DNA of 64,000 nucleotides from a phage. A program made the position numbers and the translations under genes. Each line of letters opens with the position of its first letter. Position 1 is the stretch's first letter. The stretch is from the sequence record OZ346222.1. One strand, given 5' to 3'. Below the pieces are notes generated by a model that was given only the letters and a program-made list of their open reading frames with translations, ran no database searches and was not told where the DNA came from. Shown piece after piece: positions 16,989 to 61,555 of this stretch.

Positions 16989-17408
16989 ATGAACATTAAA
17001 TCTAATAATCCGGCATATAGCTTTGATAACGCTTTTTGTCACGGTCCGGCGGCGAAAGGATTCGAAATCGATGGTAAACTAATTATTGTCAATGTTGACG
17101 GGGAAGAGGTTGCAGTATATCCGGTGGCAGACGTAAAAAGCCGTTTACAATGCCGCATGGATGTTACCGCCTATCAGCTTGATCCGGTCCGCATAGTTGC
17201 CCTGGTCCTGGAAGAAGAAATTAAAGCCATGCACCATAGCAACAGATTTATTGGTGACGCGCAGGATAATATGAAAGTATGCCGCCATAAAGTTAATGAA
17301 GTGCTTAAAGAGTACGGCTATAAAGATCTTATGATCAAACGTGAGGAAAAATTCCGCTACCGTAACGACCTGGCAAATCGGATTTTTGAAATATACGAAT
17401 CATTATAA
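16989..17408 (+). CDS. hypothetical protein (139 aa)
   Basis: Track ORF; TAAGAGG RBS. Confidence 0.6.
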   Translation: MNIKSNNPAYSFDNAFCHGPAAKGFEIDGKLIIVNVDGEEVAVYPVADVKSRLQCRMDVTAYQLDPVRIVALVLEEEIKAMHHSNRFIGDAQDNMKVCRHKVNEVLKEYGYKDLMIKREEKFRYRNDLANRIFEIYESL

Positions 17409-17426
17409 TTTTTTAACTGAATTATC

Positions 17427-17452
17427 AAGGGGCTTAGGCCCCTTTCTTTTTG
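17427..17452 (+). terminator. intrinsic terminator closing the rightward early array
   Basis: AAGGGGC tta GGCCCCTT followed by TCTTTTT. Confidence 0.7.
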
Positions 17453-17889
17453 TCTGCTCTTCCCCCTACCATAAACGGCCCTACCTGGCAAGTGGAATAA
17501 TTGACGAGCCATCAATCCCACACACTGTACAAATATACATGTAAAATAACTATTGCATAACCTTTCATTGTGTGGTAGCGGTGCTATTTTTTACCTGTTT
17601 TCCTTCCAAAATTGCACGTAATGCAGCTATTGCACAAAATTTAACCTGATGCACATCTCCAATATCCTGTCAACAACTAAAAATCTTTATAAGTCATACA
17701 CTTACACAGCATCGAAAGCGTGTTCTACGCGAAAAATCGAGTATAACTATAGCCGCCAGATCTCAGAATTCACGTACGCACGCCATTCTATAGCCTGCAA
17801 AGTATTTATTCCAACCACAGAATAACGGAATAGTCAATACCTGAATAAAATAATTATTCGTTTAAACTGCATAACATAAATCAGCTCAG

Positions 17890-19410
17890 GTGTCAACATT
17901 TTTCGTAAACAGTCTGAAATTGTCACTGTGAGTTATCATAAACAGAGAAATCTTTAGTCGTATAATGTTTACTGTACGTTACTATACTGACTGGAATCAT
18001 TAGATGACTAATAGAAAGATAAGAAATAATTAACAATACAATTATTTTACCTGTAACAATAAGACAACTATGCAAACGAATGGCATGGCGCGACGGAGTC
18101 GCGACATAATATAAAAGCAGTAACCATCACCCCCGTGATGGTTTGTCTGCAATCTATTAATCAGATCATAGTTGCCTTGTATTCAGTTAATCATGACATA
18201 ATAAGCAAGGCAACTATAGATCTGCTAATAGTTGCCCTGCTTTTATATTATGTCATATATTATTAACTTGTTAATTGTTAACTTGCTAATTGTTTTCATG
18301 CAAACGAATGTCATGGCTTATCCTATCTGTGTAAACAGTTAAGGTGTAAACTATCCAGGCGTAAACAGTCTATGCGGGAACAATCTATACGTGAACAGTG
18401 AAACATGAAATAATAACAGTCGTTATTGTGTCGAAAGTGTATAAGGTGTCAGACAAGTTTTTCTCCTCTTTGTCAAGTGCTGCATGAAAAATTTACAAGC
18501 TTGTATGGTAGCATTTTTGCGGCCCTGTTTACATTCAGCGATGTATGTATAATCCTTGTTGTGTGGGCGTTTAGACGTCTAGACGGTCAGAAGTCTGCAG
18601 GTTAATACCTAATCTATCGGCTGCTAACTATATCCCACACAAATAGTAAGAAATATAATTGTTATGTGCGTAAACAGTAACTCATGTTATCAATCCCTGT
18701 ATGTATCGCCAGTGGTGCGCATAATGGGTATTATGTTAAATTGCCCGTAATGATAACTATTCTCACAATGATAGGTATTCTCATTCACTCCCACAAGATA
18801 GGTTGCAAATGTTGTGCCACTGTGTGAACGGCCTAACCTATTAATTTGCCTCACTGCCTCGATATTTGAGAATTGTTATAAGAATGAGAAGTATTCCCAT
18901 TTCGTCCGCCTGGCAGCACTCCAGTCGCTACCGCTCATGACAGGGCAGAACTAGACCCTCTTCAGATATTTCTGGCTGACTCTTCAGGTCTGTGTGGGAA
19001 AAGCCAACCTCTCCGGCGGCGGGGAGGGGGTCAATTAAAAAAAATTACGTGGTGCATGAAGCGCTCTTCAGGTAAGGCATGTGTTATGGGATGAAACCCT
19101 CTTCAGGCAATGATATTTGTGGGTGTGATATTTGCTGGAAAGCCAGATATGACGGGACTCCTGGCGGGGCAGGGGTAGTACAGACAGGGAAAATATGGGG
19201 GATGTAGTTGGGGAAATTGATCAGACAGGTAGAGTATGGAATATGTTACAAGTATGTTAAATAGGGAGGATGAATATCTGCAGGATTTGTGTGTAAAATC
19301 AAAGACTTAAGTGGTGTTGTGGTATTTTCTATAAATAATTCAAGTTTAATAGGTAATATTTGTCTCTATCCACTTTGTGTGGTAAACAGATTCAGATGAA
19401 ATTGGTTTAC
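17890..19410. repeat. iteron field: at least 8 copies of GTAAACAG(T) in both orientations
   Basis: Copies at about 17899, 17969(-), 18332, 18361, 18527(-), 18669, 19381 plus variants GTAAACTA, GTGAACAG; no ORF of 60 aa or more in 17545-19823. Confidence 0.6.
18150..18320. repeat. nested inverted and direct repeats
   Basis: ATAGTTGCCTTG / CAAGGCAACTAT perfect 12-bp inverted repeat, ATGACATAATA / TATTATGTCAT inverted repeat, TAATTGTT direct repeats, flanked by direct repeats ATGCAAACGAATG(G/T)CATGGC at about 18070 and 18298. Confidence 0.7.
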
Positions 19411-19873
19411 AAGTGTATACATAATATACAAATTAAAGATACAAGAAACCCCCCTCCCCCTTCGGCTACCATTCACCTTTTCCTCTGACTGGTACTTAAA
19501 CACTTATTCAGACTCTTCAGGTTATCACCCATATATCATATGGCAGTGACTGGTGTCCTCCGGCCCCTCTTTCGTCACCCGTCCGCTTCGCCATGCTAAT
19601 GCCATAGCCAATGGTTCGGTTGTTCACTCTGTTCACTCAGGTGTATCTCCATACCCCTTCAAACCGAAGAGAACAGAAAACCCGAATTACTCGGTAAAAG
19701 AAAAGAGAAGAACTTAATTTTATCAGGATAGGCAAGAATGTCAAGGCATGACTGCTCACTAAACAAGCAAACAGTCATGTGTGGAAGGTAAGTGATTGTG
19801 GTGGTGGGAAATTTAGTTGAAAGATGTGTTATAGGTGCGCTTCCAGCACTTTGGCCGGGCAGCTAATTGTGTG

Positions 19874-20089
19874 TCAGTCCAGCGGTTCATCCTCTACTTC
19901 ACTGAAATCAATGTTCATGGTCTCCTCCCAACCATCGATCTCAGCACAAGAGTGGAGTTCTTTAGGGTTTACTCCCAAAGCCTCAGCAACAGAGTCTATA
20001 TTTAACACCTCTGGCAGGTATGATTCATCGAATTCAAGGTAAATCAGGCCACGAGTGTTGTCAGCTCCACCAAATATCTCTATCTTCAT
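19874..20089 (-). CDS. hypothetical acidic protein (71 aa)
   Basis: Track ORF; last gene of leftward array. Confidence 0.5.
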   Translation of the reverse strand: MKIEIFGGADNTRGLIYLEFDESYLPEVLNIDSVAEALGVNPKELHSCAEIDGWEETMNIDFSEVEDEPLD

Positions 20090-20210
20090 GAAATCTCCTC
20101 TGGAAATGAGAGTGTGAACAGGGTTTTATACGTTCTAATGCACAGGAATTATACACGTTTGCCTCTTCAGGCCATGCTTTAGCATGAGGAACCTGTGTGG
20201 GCTCGGTGCT

Positions 20211-20423
20211 TCATAGTCTACCACCTCTGAACTCTTCGTGCTCAGGCATAATAGAGAACCAGATATCTACGATGTCCTCCCACGTCAGGTCATCAGCCTC
20301 AGGATCTGTCTGGGACGAAGATGAAGAGTCCTCAGAATCTAAGTTTTCCTCTTTAACTGGCTCATCCAAGGGACATATGGTCACTCCTTCGGATGTCTCT
20401 TCAGATGCATGTGTGTTGATCAT
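20211..20423 (-). CDS. hypothetical acidic protein (70 aa)
   Basis: Track ORF. Confidence 0.5.
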   Translation of the reverse strand: MINTHASEETSEGVTICPLDEPVKEENLDSEDSSSSSQTDPEADDLTWEDIVDIWFSIMPEHEEFRGGRL

Positions 20424-20521
20424 GTTCCCCCCGTGAGTATTCCGGCAACAGCCGCTATGGAAGTAATGATCATCAGGATCACCACTAAAACTTCAGACAA
20501 TGTTCTCATTGTGTATTCCAT
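20420..20521 (-). CDS. hypothetical membrane micro-protein (33 aa)
   Basis: Below track cutoff; GGAGAA RBS; stop overlaps ATG of downstream gene (ATGA). Confidence 0.4.
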   Translation of the reverse strand: MEYTMRTLSEVLVVILMIITSIAAVAGILTGGT

Positions 20522-20783
20522 ATTCTCCAAACTGTGTGTGGATACTATCACGGGAGCGGTAATGTGTCAACAGCAACGCCGCGAGGGTTTGGTTAAAATC
20601 CGAGCGTATGGTGATTTGGGTCAAAACGGACGTGCGTTCTCGCTACGCTCGAAAGAGAGACTTGTTTGTAGAAAGCTCTTAAACGCTCTGTAACGAGATT
20701 ATCTGTCCAAGGTATGCAATCGTGCACCAGATAAAGAAAAGGACGCCACAGAGCGTCCTAGGTGTCTTAAATTTGATATTTTG

Positions 20784-57250: not shown

Positions 57251-57805
57251 ATGAAATACTTTGTAACAAGCGACACACACTTTCTCCACCAGCGGGTCAT
57301 GGAGTTTGACTCATGTCAAAAACACAGATCTCAGTATGATCACAATCTTGACAGTATGAATGCGGGGATCATCACCAAGTGGAACTCTGTTGTGTCACCT
57401 GCAGACACTGTGTTTCACTTAGGAGATATTGCGTGCACTAATGATAAGAATATTAACAAATTGCTCCCAGATGTTCTAAATATGTTGAACGGACATATTA
57501 TTCTTGTTCGTGGTAACCATGACACAAGGACGACTGTCAGAATTATGAAAGAGTTCGGTCATGAGGTTGTAGATTATTACGAGCTTCGCCACAACAAGAA
57601 TTTGATCTGTATGAGCCATTACCAGTTTGCAAAGTGGAACAGAAAGCCTCACGGATCGGTCCAACTGTTCGGTCATGCTCACGGAACCACACAGCAGTTG
57701 TTTGGCAGGCAGTTTGATGTCGGTTGGGATGTGTGGGGGAGACTCTTACCATTAGAAGAGGCATACCGTATTGCAATGAGTCTTGCTATTGACAGCGTGG
57801 AGTAA
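57251..57805 (+). CDS. calcineurin-like metallophosphoesterase
   Basis: Track ORF 57146..57805 trimmed to ATG after GAGGAA RBS; motifs DTHF, GDIA, GNHD, GHAHG. Confidence 0.7.
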   Translation: MKYFVTSDTHFLHQRVMEFDSCQKHRSQYDHNLDSMNAGIITKWNSVVSPADTVFHLGDIACTNDKNINKLLPDVLNMLNGHIILVRGNHDTRTTVRIMKEFGHEVVDYYELRHNKNLICMSHYQFAKWNRKPHGSVQLFGHAHGTTQQLFGRQFDVGWDVWGRLLPLEEAYRIAMSLAIDSVE

Positions 57806-57852
57806 TCCCTGCTATTTTAAAGAAAATTGCCACACAAGGAGAATCAGGAGAT

Positions 57853-58203
57853 ATGAAAGATGGGGATAAGCTGCTATATCTTAAAGTCCCCCTTGAAATA
57901 CTGTCTATGTCAAAAGTTTTGAATGACACAACTGGTGAGGTTGTTGTTCTTGACTTATATGACAAGATCGTATACTGCTACCTGCACAACTGGTATAAGC
58001 TTGGAGGAAATTCACGCTTCACGCCCAGCACAAGGAAAATTGCAGCAGATATTGGGATAAAGAAAACAAAAGCAGCAGCGTGCGTTAAAACTTTAGAATG
58101 TGCAGGAGTGGTTGAAATATCCACGCAAGGGAGAGGTAAAAGATGCACATTTTCCAAAGTTTTGCCACCAGAAGAAGTTATTCGAATGTCAACAACTGGT
58201 TAG
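57853..58203 (+). CDS. hypothetical protein (116 aa)
   Basis: Track ORF; AAGGAGAA RBS. Confidence 0.55.
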   Translation: MKDGDKLLYLKVPLEILSMSKVLNDTTGEVVVLDLYDKIVYCYLHNWYKLGGNSRFTPSTRKIAADIGIKKTKAAACVKTLECAGVVEISTQGRGKRCTFSKVLPPEEVIRMSTTG

Positions 58204-58278
58204 ACCAGTAAAAACTTAAATATCTGTACTATAAGGATTCGTATGTTTTATGTTCACTCTGGAACAGAGGTTAGTAAC

Positions 58279-58361
58279 TGTCCGTGATACGGACACTACT
58301 GTCCGTCACGCGGACACATCTGTCCGTAATACGGACACTAACTGTCCGTGATACGGACACA
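58279..58361. repeat. tandem array of four palindromic sites (C)TGTCCGT-N4/5-ACGGACA(C)
   Basis: Copies at about 58279, 58299, 58320, 58343; period 20-23 bp. Confidence 0.85.
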
Positions 58362-58499
58362 TAAAGAATATAACTAAAATAACTAAATAATAAAAAAAAT
58401 AAAAGATCTAGTACTTATGGTACTAAGTACATATACTTAACTTATGTAGAATATACTAGATCCTAAGTACCATGTTTTAAATTTATTACTTACTATAGG

Positions 58500-58860
58500 T
58501 AGTGTCGGCCCTTCATTGGCACTCGCCTACGAGGGGGCGAGATGCCGGGCCTCCTTGGTGCACACAATAACAGAAGTGCATACATGAAGGTCTGTTAACA
58601 TGTGTGGGAGCGAAGCGATAGCGCAGGCCAAAGGCCGAGCACTGATGTGGACCACCGACGAAAGCTTGCCAGCGCCGTAAGGAGTCGGTTGAGAGTCTCC
58701 CGCGCGAGCTTGGATGAAGTTTATGTGTGGAAACGGACAAGAAGGCCCCTAAATCGCTCCACAGCTATATAAACTATACCAGGTAAGGCAATCGCACCAG
58801 TTTGATAGAAAAGCTCGTTACAAAGCGATACAGTGAGTTTTTCTATAACTTGAAGAGGAG
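58500..58860 (+). other. GC-rich structured non-coding segment (candidate ncRNA; strand unknown)
   Basis: No rightward ORF; many short inverted repeats (GGCCC...GGGCC, CTCGCC...GGCGAG, TGCAC...GTGCA); GC content visibly above flanks. Confidence 0.3.
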
Positions 58861-58866
58861 GCAGCT

Positions 58867-59445
58867 ATGAGTCCACGCAAAGATGACCGTGAAAAGATTG
58901 CAAAACGTTATCAGAATGAAGAACAGATGGAGAAAACTTTCAAGTGGAAGCCAGGTTTCCAGCGTAATCATTCTAACGCTCGTGATCGTAAGCATCCGGA
59001 TAAGTGGTTAACACCGCCAAATGATGGCATGCAGGTTGGGGATGAGAAGGAGCTGTCACCTGGAAAAGATGGCAACTACATTCGCACTAAGGAAGCAGGT
59101 CCAAAGGATGACAGCTATCTTGTAGATAAGGTTCTTGACGGTGTTGATGTAGGTGTTGACACTGTACGAAACCTTTTTCTTGGTTGGTATCGCACAGGGT
59201 TTTTCGACATCAAGGCTATTCGTCGTGTTTGTGATATTAAAAAGTCTGCCTACGATGATGATTCCCTACATCGCACTCTGAGACAATACTCAGAGAGGTA
59301 CGGTCATCCAGTTATCACTCTTGACGATATTAACGAAGTTATGTATCATGTAGAGGTTGTTGCAGGTAGGTTCGGTGATGCATATCTCGGTATTCTTTCT
59401 GCAAAGGATGAGGTAATGTTAAATAAGATTTACTATGAACGCTGA
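58867..59445 (+). CDS. hypothetical protein (192 aa)
   Basis: Track ORF; GAGGAGG RBS. Confidence 0.6.
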   Translation: MSPRKDDREKIAKRYQNEEQMEKTFKWKPGFQRNHSNARDRKHPDKWLTPPNDGMQVGDEKELSPGKDGNYIRTKEAGPKDDSYLVDKVLDGVDVGVDTVRNLFLGWYRTGFFDIKAIRRVCDIKKSAYDDDSLHRTLRQYSERYGHPVITLDDINEVMYHVEVVAGRFGDAYLGILSAKDEVMLNKIYYER

Positions 59446-59963: not shown

Positions 59964-60251
59964 GGTTGTTTTCGTGTATCATGATGAATATCCAATTTAA
60001 AGATGAATTTGATGGCTTTATCTCCGGATGCTTTGAAACAGGGTTCGGAGAAGGCTGAGTTCCCCTTAGAGGGCTTGATAGTGCACCACACTTAAAATGG
60101 TAGGGGCAGCCAGCACATGACGATGTGACCCCAGCCAACCTGTAATAAGGTCGAGCCAAAGTGCGGTAATGGGCTCTGGTAACCCACTTGTTGGGTCTTG
60201 CTGGTCCAGGACGCTGGACAAGTCGCAGGGAATACCACCCTGCGGCGAACT

Positions 60252-60281
60252 TGACAATCAGTATTTGCTATGATAAAATCC
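60252..60281 (+). promoter_or_regulatory. sigma70-like promoter
   Basis: TTGACA, 17-nt spacer, TAAAAT. Confidence 0.5.
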
Positions 60282-60742: not shown

Positions 60743-60817
60743 GCCCTGTTAGCTTAGTGGATAAAGCAGCGGCCTTCTAAGCCGTTGACACTGGTTCGAG
60801 TCCAGTACGGGGTGCCA
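60743..60817 (+). tRNA. tRNA-Arg (anticodon TCT)
   Basis: Manual fold: 7-bp acceptor with G-U pairs, anticodon loop CTTCTAA, T-loop TTCGAGT, 3' CCA encoded. Confidence 0.7.
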
Positions 60818-60821
60818 AATT

Positions 60822-60908
60822 GGGGAGTTATCCCGTAGAGGTAGCGGTGTAGACTGTAAATCTATTGTCATTGCGACTCGGGTGGTTCGACTCCACCACT
60901 CCCCACCA
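60822..60908 (+). tRNA. tRNA-Tyr (anticodon GTA), long variable arm
   Basis: Acceptor GGGGAGT/ACTCCCC, anticodon loop CTGTAAA, long extra arm, T-loop TTCGACT, CCA encoded. Confidence 0.75.
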
Positions 60909-61022
60909 AATTTATATTTTTAGATGCATAAATAATACAGATAATGGCATTGATATTTATCGTCGTTTATACTAGTCACTAACTGCTCGAAAATCAGTGT
61001 CATTATCAGTATAATTTATAAA

Positions 61023-61113
61023 GGAGGGTAGGGAGCAATGGTGCTCAAGCGGTATTGAAAACCGTCCCGTTGAGGATGACTCGATGATGGTTCGATTCCA
61101 TTACTCTCCGCCA
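61023..61113 (+). tRNA. tRNA-Ser (anticodon TGA), long variable arm
   Basis: Acceptor GGAGGGT/ACTCTCC, anticodon loop ATTGAAA, about 20-nt extra arm, T-loop TTCGATT, CCA encoded. Confidence 0.7.
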
Positions 61114-61211
61114 CATTGTTGACCTTGTAATTAAGCGAAAGCCGGAAGCAGAACCGGATTATCAAATGTTACAGTCGTCATCGCCGACTAGCAACATGGT
61201 CAACATACTGA

Positions 61212-61308
61212 GCTAGGTAAGCCCTTTGGCAAGGGCGAGGATTTTTAATCCTGAAAATAGACGAGGTAGTCGTTGAATACATAGGTGGTTCGATTCCATC
61301 ACCTAGCA
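61212..61308 (+). tRNA. atypical tRNA-like gene (possible anticodon TTT) with about 30-nt extra arm
   Basis: Acceptor GCTAGGT/ACCTAGC, D-arm GCCC/GGGC, 4-bp anticodon stem with loop TTTTTAA, T-arm GGTGG TTCGATT CCATC; no CCA; extra region too long for a canonical tRNA. Confidence 0.35.
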
Positions 61309-61315
61309 CCTTTTT

Positions 61316-61391
61316 GCTGATGTAGCACAATCGGTAGTGCAATTGATTTGTAATCAATAGGTTGTAGGTTCAAGTCCTGCCATCAGCACCA
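61316..61391 (+). tRNA. tRNA-Thr (anticodon TGT)
   Basis: Acceptor GCTGATG/CATCAGC, anticodon stem ATTGA/TCAAT with loop TTTGTAA, T-loop TTCAAGT, CCA encoded. Confidence 0.75.
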
Positions 61392-61392
61392 A

Positions 61393-61467
61393 GGCCCTGT
61401 AGCTGGAAGGTTCAAGCAAGCGACTCATAATCGCCAGACGGTGGTTCAATTCCACCCAGGGCCACCA
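61393..61467 (+). tRNA. tRNA-Met or Ile2 (anticodon CAT), elongator type
   Basis: Acceptor GGCCCTG/CAGGGCC (G1-C72 paired), anticodon loop CTCATAA, T-loop TTCAATT, CCA encoded. Confidence 0.7.
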
Positions 61468-61478
61468 AATAGTAAATA

Positions 61479-61555
61479 CTCCGCGTAGCTCAGCTTGGTA
61501 GAGCGCCTGATTTGGGATCAGGAGGTCGAGTGTTCGAATCACTCCGTGGAGACCA
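61479..61555 (+). tRNA. tRNA-Pro (anticodon TGG)
   Basis: Acceptor CTCCGCG/CGTGGAG, anticodon stem CCTGA/TCAGG with loop TTTGGGA, T-loop TTCGAAT, CCA encoded. Confidence 0.75.

Follow-up and report, generated by a model that had tools for sequence, protein, structure and literature searches.

A conserved folded element beside interchangeable iterons in rV5-like phages and phage-like Escherichia coli plasmids, possibly part of a replication-origin cassette

We analyzed a GC-rich segment at positions 58500–58860 of a 64,000-nt stretch of phage DNA (record OZ346222.1; the whole stretch is called the window below), which comes from an rV5-like phage (Vequintavirus). The segment holds a conserved, non-coding element whose hairpins are under selection, which is built of modules, and which keeps a fixed position and orientation beside interchangeable iteron sets. 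The best explanation for this combination is an origin cassette that is common to, and exchanged between, Vequintavirus phages and 13–14 kb phage-like plasmids of Escherichia coli. The segment would be the constant, initiator-independent half of this replication-origin cassette, acting as a folded single-strand priming or replisome-loading signal. We put this forward as a tentative reading, in which the origin function, the priming role and the kind of nucleic acid that folds are what we infer from the comparisons below.

The initial annotation, made from the letters of the segment alone, had described a GC-rich, helix-dense, non-coding stretch that might be an uncharacterised phage non-coding RNA (ncRNA). 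Its GC richness was confirmed: GC content per 200 nt reached 0.575 at 58500–58699 and 0.545 at 58600–58799, with lower values in both flanks (0.305–0.40 just upstream, 0.305 being that of 58300–58499, and 0.42–0.445 downstream). By blastn, 58200–58900 matched 119 phage records, all Vequintavirus, at 90–99.7% identity, and the element was present in 119/119 of these records. The conserved element extends from about 58503 to 58850 and has a sharp 5' edge, 12/13 columns just upstream being variable in the phage alignment versus 5/52 in the first hairpin, H1. Conservation within the phages is a mosaic, with the following proportions of variable columns:

Immediate 5' flank: 92%
H1: 10%
Hairpin H2: 55%
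Module: 18%
Core: 16%
3' variable block: 51%
3' hairpin (58805–58846): 6%

An origin-like context and a set of plasmid relatives, both left out of the initial annotation, were found for this element. The features that precede it are:

57853–58203, + strand: open reading frame (ORF) for a small winged-helix initiator-like protein of 116 aa, the homologue of rV5 gp075, with a sigma-70-like promoter ahead of it (57789–57818)
58275–58360, no strand assigned: four 21–22-nt iterons, a direct-repeat family, each with the palindrome TGTCCGTnnnACGGACA
58361–58499, no strand assigned: AT-rich stretch of ~140 bp (GC ~0.30), with AT-rich palindromes and with GATC at 58405–58408 and 58459–58462

The protein encoded at 57853–58203 matched Pfam HTH_36 (E 1.5e-5) and DUF6945, and its homologues in rV5 relatives are annotated as 'replication initiation protein / putative transcriptional regulator'. 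Tandem repeats, an adjacent AT-rich region and an HTH_36 initiator gene nearby together make the layout of an iteron origin, in which 58361–58499 is the presumed unwinding region. Iteron copy number varies among the phages, with an extra copy in ECTP14 and deletions in A147 and JES2013. No DnaA box of full consensus (TTATCCACA), which in a hairpin stem would mark a single-strand initiation signal of the 'A site' kind, was found by direct reading of the segment. The closest sequence was TGGTCCACA (the reverse complement of 58647–58655; 7/9 positions); TCCCACACA agrees with the exact consensus at 6/9 positions, and at 8/9 with a looser degenerate consensus from the literature. A resemblance to a T7-like promoter (ACTTACTATAGG, 58491–58502) was rejected because its bases vary freely among the phages.

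The initiator and the iterons proved replaceable, and the element stayed in place. A divergent rV5-like phage contig (L007; IMGVR_UViG_3300010279_000001, reverse strand 450–1280) is 83% identical in the element and keeps the phosphoesterase gene, but a different 143-aa initiator and different iterons have been substituted as a block; the AT-rich stretch is again followed by the element, and similarity picks up exactly at H1. Among the plasmids, iteron sequences are of at least five kinds, and the HTH_36/MarR-type initiators (matches to PHROG replication-initiation families) differ as well; the order is always iterons, conserved AT-rich/GATC stretch, element, in the same orientation. In one plasmid (L003) there is a second iteron set, again followed by H1, and the flank of this second set has AACTAAC..ATCCGTT in common with the flank in L007. 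Across at least seven iteron types, the element thus lies directly 3' of iterons and an AT-rich/GATC stretch, in one orientation.

The plasmid relatives were recovered by blastn against E. coli genomes and PLSDB as small circular plasmids of 13.2–13.7 kb, plus one of 39.6 kb with three matches, which looks like a trimer. Metagenomes and Logan/NCBI contigs gave further relatives of 13.2–14.3 kb, and the family comprises L003/L004 (NZ_CP020521.1), L005, L008–L010, L082, L093 and L121–L124. No copy was found on an E. coli chromosome: blastn against 5,426 E. coli genomes matched small plasmids alone, which disposes of a host-derived fragment. When whole plasmids were compared with the 64-kb window by tblastx and blastn, the element was the only match, at ~85% nucleotide identity. 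The plasmids encode a major capsid protein (phrog_29), a neck protein (phrog_222), a Dit-like protein, a tape-measure protein of ~700 aa (phrog_5255) and the HTH_36/MarR-type initiator; neither terminase nor portal was found among their 15–17 genes. The best phage-database matches of the tape-measure protein were those of Vequintavirus, at only ~25% identity. The capsid protein falls in a cluster with 441 member sequences in public data and had no match in IMG/VR. From this gene content the plasmids would appear to be plasmid-borne satellites or defective relatives of rV5-like phages. Literature searches (rV5 ncRNA, origin, satellites, plasmid accessions) returned no description of them.

Searches for wider homologues stayed close to these two groups. 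Three scans of IMG/VR with the core motif gave only one divergent rV5-like contig and a chance coding match. Similar scans of GTDB genomes and of metagenomes matched an Oxalobacteraceae gene by chance in most cases; rV5-like phages and two more plasmids were the only true matches. In neighboring genera (Seunavirus and a Klebsiella phage, reached via RNA ligase) no GC-rich element was seen by eye, by GC profile or by covariance model; an initiator gene and an AT-rich repeat region are present there. A motif ACAGGGCCTC(T/C)CAG(A/G)GG is intergenic in the Seunavirus and Klebsiella phage (L118 2950–3110, L119 3020–3130) and recurs in the distal element of plasmids L009, L010, L121 and L124, a hint of further non-coding signals common to the rV5 supergroup.

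The element consists of the following parts, from 5' to 3':

58507–58551, + strand: hairpin H1, with GGCCC/GGGCC (58507–11 / 58547–51), GGCA/TGCC (58518–21 / 58543–46) and CTCGCC/GGCGAG (58522–27 / 58536–41)
58561–58606, + strand: hairpin H2, with CACACA/UGUGUG (58561–66 / 58601–06) around UAACAGA/UCUGUUA (58568–74 / 58591–97)
58608–58645, + strand: module after the first TGTGTGG (58601–58607), with GCGAAGC (58611–58617) and GGCC-AAA-GGCC; resembles the AGCGUAGUGCGAUAGCACGUAGC module of type-2 plasmids
58646–58706, + strand: core, AUGUGGACC, with stem P_a ACCGAC/GUCGGU (58654–59 / 58684–89) and the invariant loop GAAAGCUUGCCAGC (58660–73)
58675–82 and 58697–58706, + strand: core, continued, with the CC-G(U/G)AA-GG hairpin (58675–82) and CUCCCGCGCG (58697–58706)
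58724–58730, + strand: second TGTGTGG spacer, a direct repeat
58744–58800, + strand: 3' block alignable to plasmids, with GGCCCCUAAAU (58744–54), a small hairpin (58768–70 / 58776–78) and UAAGGCAAUCGCA (58784–96)
58805–58846, + strand: phage-specific hairpin of 12 bp with an 18-nt loop, 8 nt ahead of the Shine-Dalgarno sequence of the next gene

Folding of the single sequence gave a weak signal. Against shuffles, RNA folding of the top strand reached z –2.45 (381 nt) and –1.92 (301 nt), that of the bottom strand z –1.46, and folding with DNA parameters z –1.38 and –1.05; a repeat search found two inverted repeats inside the segment. The helix-dense sequence with many nested inverted repeats that the initial annotation had described therefore shrinks to two repeats and folding weakly above chance, but the structure itself is backed by the comparison of homologues, which is what makes the case that it is real.

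For this comparison, H1 (58507–58551) and the core (58646–58706) were aligned across 13 distinct phage and plasmid sequences. All 23 pairs of H1, P_a and the CC-GNAA-GG hairpin were 100% paired, and in five of these pairs both partners had changed (in H1, G-C to U-A at two pairs; in P_a, A-U to G-C, C-G to U-A and A-U to C-G). The remaining phage–plasmid differences all fall in loops and junctions, and no stem substitution was left uncompensated. In statistics run on a 27-pair structure that included a fourth, unsupported helix, 0/500 column shuffles came up to the data in percentage paired, in covariation score or in the count of pairs with changes on both sides, and 1/500 did so in the count of further pair types; slid controls were 33–45% paired and had no double changes. 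A helix GUGGAC/GUCUCC (62–65 / 108–111 of alignment A2) was discarded, its sole variable pair being unpaired in 5/13 sequences. RNAalifold on the phages alone missed P_a and gave a covariation term of 0.33 kcal/mol, because divergence within the genus is too small. Covariation across homologues, which the initial annotation had named as a way to check the structure, was thus found between phages and plasmids without a broken pair, and the conserved helices are maintained by compensatory change.

The individual parts differ in how well their pairing is defined. H1 (15 pairs) was 100% paired in 12 distinct sequences, with both compensated pairs in plasmid L003 and all other differences in loops. 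Its loop has five Gs at 58533–58537 here, as in L003, versus four in 14 other phages examined. The six pairs of P_a were 100% paired, three being compensated in plasmids (GCUGCC/GGCAGC), with G·U in L007 and in phage Aya. H2 was drawn from its inverted repeat and from minimum free energy folds; its distal part is variable, an 18-nt deletion in rV5 and A147 removes its inner arm (CACACAUG...CAUGUGUG can still pair), and its terminal A-U is C-G in L007. In the module at 58608–58645 any pairing is tentative, single changes in Aya and L007 being uncompensated. The small hairpin at 58768–78 is changed on both sides in L007 (UGC/GCA) and Aya (UGU/ACA) and is mismatched in JEP1, FV3 and L085. The hairpin at 58805–58846 is nearly invariant, loop included (3/47 columns variable), and is absent from plasmids.

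In the plasmids the element is 540–1170 nt long and is made of cassettes divided by (T)GTGTGG(G). The recurrent cassette consists of three adjacent hairpins (a, 4–5 bp; b, 6–7 bp; c, 3–5 bp) and exists in at least eight sequence versions, whose number and order vary by plasmid and most of which fold alone as three hairpins. Among the six versions that could be aligned without ambiguity, hairpins a and b were 100% Watson-Crick, with 6/12 pairs changed on both sides and 0 on one side only. Consistently, perfect hairpins with a stem of at least 5 bp numbered 52 in the plasmid elements versus 18 ± 4 in shuffles. The type-1 plasmid core is identical to the phage core except in P_a and at 3 unpaired positions. 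A second core type (L121, L122, L124) has GUCCGGAU-18 nt-AUCCGGAC in place of the P_a stem and the otherwise 'invariant' loop; AUGUGGA before it, an 8-bp stem-loop and UCCGCGCG after it are kept, so that the shape is retained with a different sequence. Covariance model R1, which matched the core once in the window, does not recognise this type. Since the phage module resembles that of type-2 plasmids and the phage core is of type 1, the phage element reads as a mosaic of a type-1 core and a type-2-like module.

In the mechanism we envisage, the small winged-helix initiator would bind the iterons and the adjacent AT-rich, GATC-containing stretch would open. Unwinding would bare the GC-rich region as a single strand, which could adopt a fixed set of hairpins spaced by TGTGTGG (CCACACA on the other strand). 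The folded strand would then be a landing and priming signal for the replisome, of the kind known as single-strand initiation signals (ssi) or single-strand origins (sso), used either directly as single-stranded DNA or via an early transcript that crosses the origin. The plasmids could be replicated by the same machinery, because they have the same element and the same genome-wide heptamer.

Several points weigh against this origin-signal reading. The origin placed here is putative, and the authors of the rV5 genome were unable to define one from skew, whose closest change is ~2 kb off, at a strand switch (PMC3606486). The Seunavirus and Klebsiella phage have the initiator and the AT-rich repeats without the GC-rich element, which is therefore not required by this type of origin. 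At 300–650 nt the element is much longer than classical ssi signals. The independent events behind the covariation are few, most compensated pairs of H1 and P_a lying on a single phage–plasmid branch. There are also RNA-like features: a C-G pair closes the G(U/G)AA loop of the core, one-sided variants in phage stems are more often G·U than A·C on the top strand, a possible long-range helix GUGUGGG/CCCGCGC needs two G·U pairs, and the flanking genes are encoded in the sense of the top strand, with no terminator after the initiator gene.

These last features belong to the serious rival of the origin-signal reading, a structured RNA with a function other than replication. Such an RNA could lie between cistrons or in the leader of the early rightward operon and might mature into a stable ncRNA; we consider it possible, though the less probable of the two. 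Within this alternative, the UGUGUGG repeats could either bind a protein or pair with CCACACA near the ribosome-binding site in several phage mRNAs. In phage and plasmids alike, the top strand has the sense of the flanking genes; the sigma-70-like promoter at 57789–57818 drives gp075, and no terminator was predicted between that gene and the element, so that read-through across the element is likely. The same strand folds better (z –2.45) than the bottom strand (z –1.46) and carries the G·U variants and the GNRA-type core loop. A nearly invariant hairpin stands just ahead of the ribosome-binding site of the next gene, and CCACACA lies 0–15 nt 5' of the Shine-Dalgarno sequence of four + strand genes (starts 10982, 16248, 16581, 57853). 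On the other hand, no promoter or terminator of the element's own was predicted in phage or plasmid; the plasmid element lies upstream of strong operon promoters, and no promoter facing it was found. TGTGTGG inside genes is equally frequent in both orientations (9 vs 9), which fits a signal at the DNA level better than an mRNA target, and an RNA of this sort would leave the fixed place beside interchangeable iteron sets unexplained.

Comparison with known RNA families was likewise negative. At Rfam 15 gathering thresholds the window contained six tRNAs only, all outside the segment. At E ≤ 10 the best match in 58200–59000 was rli43, which scored 22.8 bits where its gathering score is 100 and lay mostly in the AT-rich flank, and at E ≤ 1 nothing matched the element in its plasmid versions. 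The families covered include transfer-messenger RNA (tmRNA), RNase P, 6S, signal recognition particle (SRP) RNA, group I and II introns, RNAI and C4/CI antisense RNA, as well as phi29 pRNA, GOLLD, ROOL and Y RNA. ARAGORN found no tRNA or tmRNA at 58500–58860. The claim that tmRNA, RNase P and group I intron signatures are lacking is therefore borne out, for tmRNA by both programs and for the other two by Rfam, and the covariance-model scan that the initial annotation had suggested assigned the segment to no described family. A resemblance of CCGGAAGGAGGCAGC in the plasmids to SRP RNA was set aside: it is a strand of the covarying P_a stem, it differs in the phage, and Rfam gave no SRP match.

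The composition of the helices also bears on which nucleic acid folds. No wobble pair occurred in 72 cassette cells, and H1, P_a and the GNRA hairpin together had two in roughly 290 cells; such an absence of G·U is unusual for RNA helices. Triloops dominate, being the commonest loop class in the plasmid elements. Of 35 distinct triloops, eight read T-N-C on the top strand (equivalent to G-N-A on the bottom strand) and three read G-N-A on the top strand, where ~2 are expected for either pattern. G-N-A loops closed by C-G form unusually stable DNA mini-hairpins, for example d(GCGAAGC), and GCGAAGC itself is found at 58611–58617. An argument for RNA from cUUCGg tetraloops was withdrawn, since the CUUCG of cassette G can only form a UUC triloop, closed by a stem of 5 bp. 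The proposal of an uncharacterised phage ncRNA thus stands in so far as the element is conserved, non-coding, without a described family and has kept its helices; RNA is one of two candidates for the folded molecule. Because the element has no promoter or terminator of its own, no G·U in its cassettes, many triloops and a fixed place after the iterons, the evidence favors an origin-linked signal in single-stranded DNA no less than a free-standing ncRNA.

A hijacking signal common to a helper phage and its satellite, for example a pac site for the phage terminase, appears improbable. Satellites commonly have cos or pac sites in common with their helpers (P4/P2, phage-inducible chromosomal islands), and such a site would explain why the element is the sole sequence in common between plasmid and window. 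The plasmid gene content, with capsid, neck, Dit-like and tape-measure genes, the last most similar to those of Vequintavirus, but without terminase or portal, also speaks for it. The rV5 genome is circularly permuted, implying headful packaging from a pac site (PMC3606486). What speaks against such a signal is that pairing is conserved rather than sequence, which is unexpected for a site bound by protein as duplex, that the common core is missing entirely from plasmids L121, L122 and L124 of the same family, that cassette number and type vary freely, and that the element is tied to iterons and not to a packaging gene; the helper–satellite relationship is itself putative.

The segment is non-coding. 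The initial annotation had seen a minus-strand frame as its only ORF; four ORFs overlap it, three on the minus strand and one rightward:

58602–58772, + strand: spurious ORF over module and core, rV5 gp074 (56 aa, GTG start), annotated as hypothetical in rV5 and BASEL phages

Across 14 aligned phages, variable alleles of the gp074 frame were distributed 16:22:19 over codon positions 1:2:3, without third-position bias, and comprised 15 synonymous versus 42 non-synonymous variants. The frame contains in-frame stops in B9-1 and L007, its GTG start lies inside a stem and lacks a Shine-Dalgarno sequence, and 4 nt (1+3) are inserted at the start in L007. A long bottom-strand frame present in other phages is broken in the window by the one extra G at 58533–58537. 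Element copies in the plasmids shift frame relative to one another, and several overlapping frames are open simultaneously, as expected of GC-rich conserved DNA. Among 5.8 billion proteins, the gp074 peptide matched Vequintavirus annotations only (four protein clusters), the bottom-strand peptide had no match, and the translated element, used as a probe for distant copies, found nothing past Vequintavirus. That the element encodes a small protein, either gp074, whose frame is open in most Vequintavirus genomes, or a minus-strand frame of 75–84 aa, is therefore virtually untenable, the more so as the compensatory stem changes would mean radical amino-acid replacements. What probability remains beyond the readings above we leave to something else.

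The heptamer that divides the cassettes is enriched far beyond them. TGTGTGG occurs 29 times in the window versus 9.0 ± 2.7 in dinucleotide shuffles and 6.2 from base composition, and is the third most enriched 7-mer there. The two ahead of it, TGTTGACA (38 copies) and ATCTGCA (36 copies), stem from an early promoter of stereotyped sequence, TTGACA-N17-TAAGAT-CTGCA, found genome-wide (e.g. at 57789, 59641, 60251 and 60656), which plasmid promoters resemble (TTGACAAT...TGATAAGAT). In the plasmids TGTGTGG is the top enriched 7-mer, with 17–19 sites per plasmid versus 1.4 expected (17 in L004). Sites in the window (e.g. 10956, 16217, 16560, 18560–20541, 57687/57730, 58601, 58724) lie on both strands, in coding and non-coding DNA; CCACACA...TGTGTGG inverted pairs 20–60 nt apart occur, and in the four cases given above a Shine-Dalgarno sequence closely follows CCACACA. 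Such a distribution, together with the enrichment in plasmids, would fit a recognition site at the DNA level, speculatively one for the phage primase-helicase; the rV5 primase/helicase is related to podovirus enzymes (PMC3606486). A wider proposal, to which we give an outside chance, is that the element and the genome-wide TGTGTGG form a replisome recognition code common to virulent rV5-like phages and plasmid-borne satellites. If so, the hairpin array beside interchangeable iteron/initiator modules would be where the phage primase-helicase loads and first primes, and satellites would copy the array and enrich TGTGTGG ~12-fold in order to be amplified by the replication machinery of the helper. 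Elsewhere in the window, 17400–20200 is ORF-poor over ~2.7 kb. The motifs CTCTTCAGG and GTAAACAGT recur in this stretch, G/C-rich hairpins are present, and top-strand copies of TGTGTGG come at intervals of about 400 nt; it may be a further region for regulation, replication origin or packaging.

The segment is housed in the rightward early region, upstream of which lie genes for an RNA ligase (minus strand), a polynucleotide kinase/ATPase and a phosphoesterase. The first downstream gene is:

58867–59445, + strand: 192-aa homologue of rV5 gp073, restricted to Vequintavirus, without a Pfam match

Protein searches found no homologue of gp075 or gp073 beyond the genus. A tRNA cluster begins ~2 kb downstream of the element, where ARAGORN predicted seven tRNA genes at 60743–61555. 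One of them, a 99-nt tRNA at 61212–61310, has a 4-base anticodon (atcc), was left without an identity by ARAGORN and scored weakly in Rfam (35.5 bits); the corresponding gene is annotated as tRNA-Lys in phage WalterGehring. A second GC-rich (0.50–0.52) non-coding island at 60000–60250, just 5' of a strong promoter-like site (60251–60279), has an RNA fold z of –2.48, no Rfam or tRNA match, and is not common to the plasmids. 

Should the origin-signal reading be right, the origin region of rV5-like phages would be defined, and a mis-annotated 'hypothetical protein' (gp074) would give way to a functional non-coding element. These phages see wide use in the biocontrol and typing of E. coli O157 and belong to the BASEL collection. 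The comparison also reveals that virulent phages and small satellite-like E. coli plasmids have repeatedly exchanged parts of the proposed origin. Interchangeable three-hairpin units, perfect compensatory evolution and a genome-wide-enriched heptamer as spacer are unusual for ssi elements and ncRNAs alike. The element belongs to no described family, and its cassette build and its sharing between phages and satellite-like plasmids appear new to the literature. Origin-associated folded elements are the known class to which we assign it; if it acts instead as a trans-acting RNA, it would mean a new RNA family.

Among known systems, GOLLD and ROOL are likewise GC-rich, multi-hairpin phage non-coding elements with variable modules, and the element here also lies 2 kb upstream of a tRNA cluster. 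In contrast to them it has no Rfam match at E ≤ 10, is much shorter, is tied to iterons and occurs also in plasmids without tRNA genes. Transcripts that prime replication or activate origins (ColE1 RNA II, the T7 and T4 origin transcripts, transcriptional activation of ori-lambda) offer another parallel: the promoter at 57789–57818 would send a transcript via the iterons and the AT-rich stretch into the GC-rich folding region. Unlike ColE1, there are an initiator protein and iterons here and no match to RNAI or another plasmid copy-control RNA in Rfam, and the plasmids have no detected promoter facing the element.

The single-strand origins of rolling-circle plasmids (ssoA, ssoT, ssoU, ssoW) are similar in being 150–300 nt long, strongly folded, orientation-dependent and non-coding, and in being swapped as cassettes apart from the Rep/double-strand-origin module. 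ssoA is defined by CS-6 (TAGCGT/A) in a terminal loop together with an RSB site; no CS-6 was found in 58500–58860, where only TAGCGC occurs (58622–58627). Iterons and an AT-rich region make a theta-type layout, unlike that of sso replicons.

G4-type ssi signals (the complementary-strand origin of phage G4, the lambda 'ice' site, the G-site of plasmid R1) share more of the arrangement. They too are non-coding runs of stable hairpins on one strand that adjoin an origin or lie at most a few hundred bp from it (here a putative origin), with a short fixed sequence by the hairpins, at which primase starts in the G4 type, and with an orientation fixed relative to the origin. G4 itself has three adjacent stem-loops, comparable to the three-hairpin cassettes, and a hairpin cluster maintained by selection on one strand was found here. 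The differences are that no sequence similarity was detected (blastn against phage and plasmid collections returned the family itself only), that the fixed sequence is TGTGTGG here and CTG there (CTG precedes the spacers CCTGTGTGTGG and TCTGTGTGG but not ATATGTGTGTGG and TTTGTGTGG), and that several tandem cassettes and a distinct core span 300–650 nt, versus roughly 100–140 nt, with a priming role that is putative here.

The origin of pHW126-like plasmids consists of an ssi-like palindrome, a conserved region and iterons and is served by a MarR-like winged-helix Rep (bioRxiv 10.1101/2022.12.05.519187). Four ~20-bp iterons, a conserved non-coding region, ssi-like folding and a winged-helix initiator recur in the system described here, and the initiator of one of our plasmids is also annotated as MarR-like. 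The pHW126-like replicons are small rolling-circle plasmids with a single-palindrome ssi and a different order of elements, and no sequence relationship was detected, a comparison that did not extend to the initiators. They can do without their ssi, which nevertheless influences copy number and the formation of multimers (bioRxiv 10.1101/2022.12.05.519187), and because it is accessory in this way, an accessory role such as we propose for the phage and plasmid element has a precedent.

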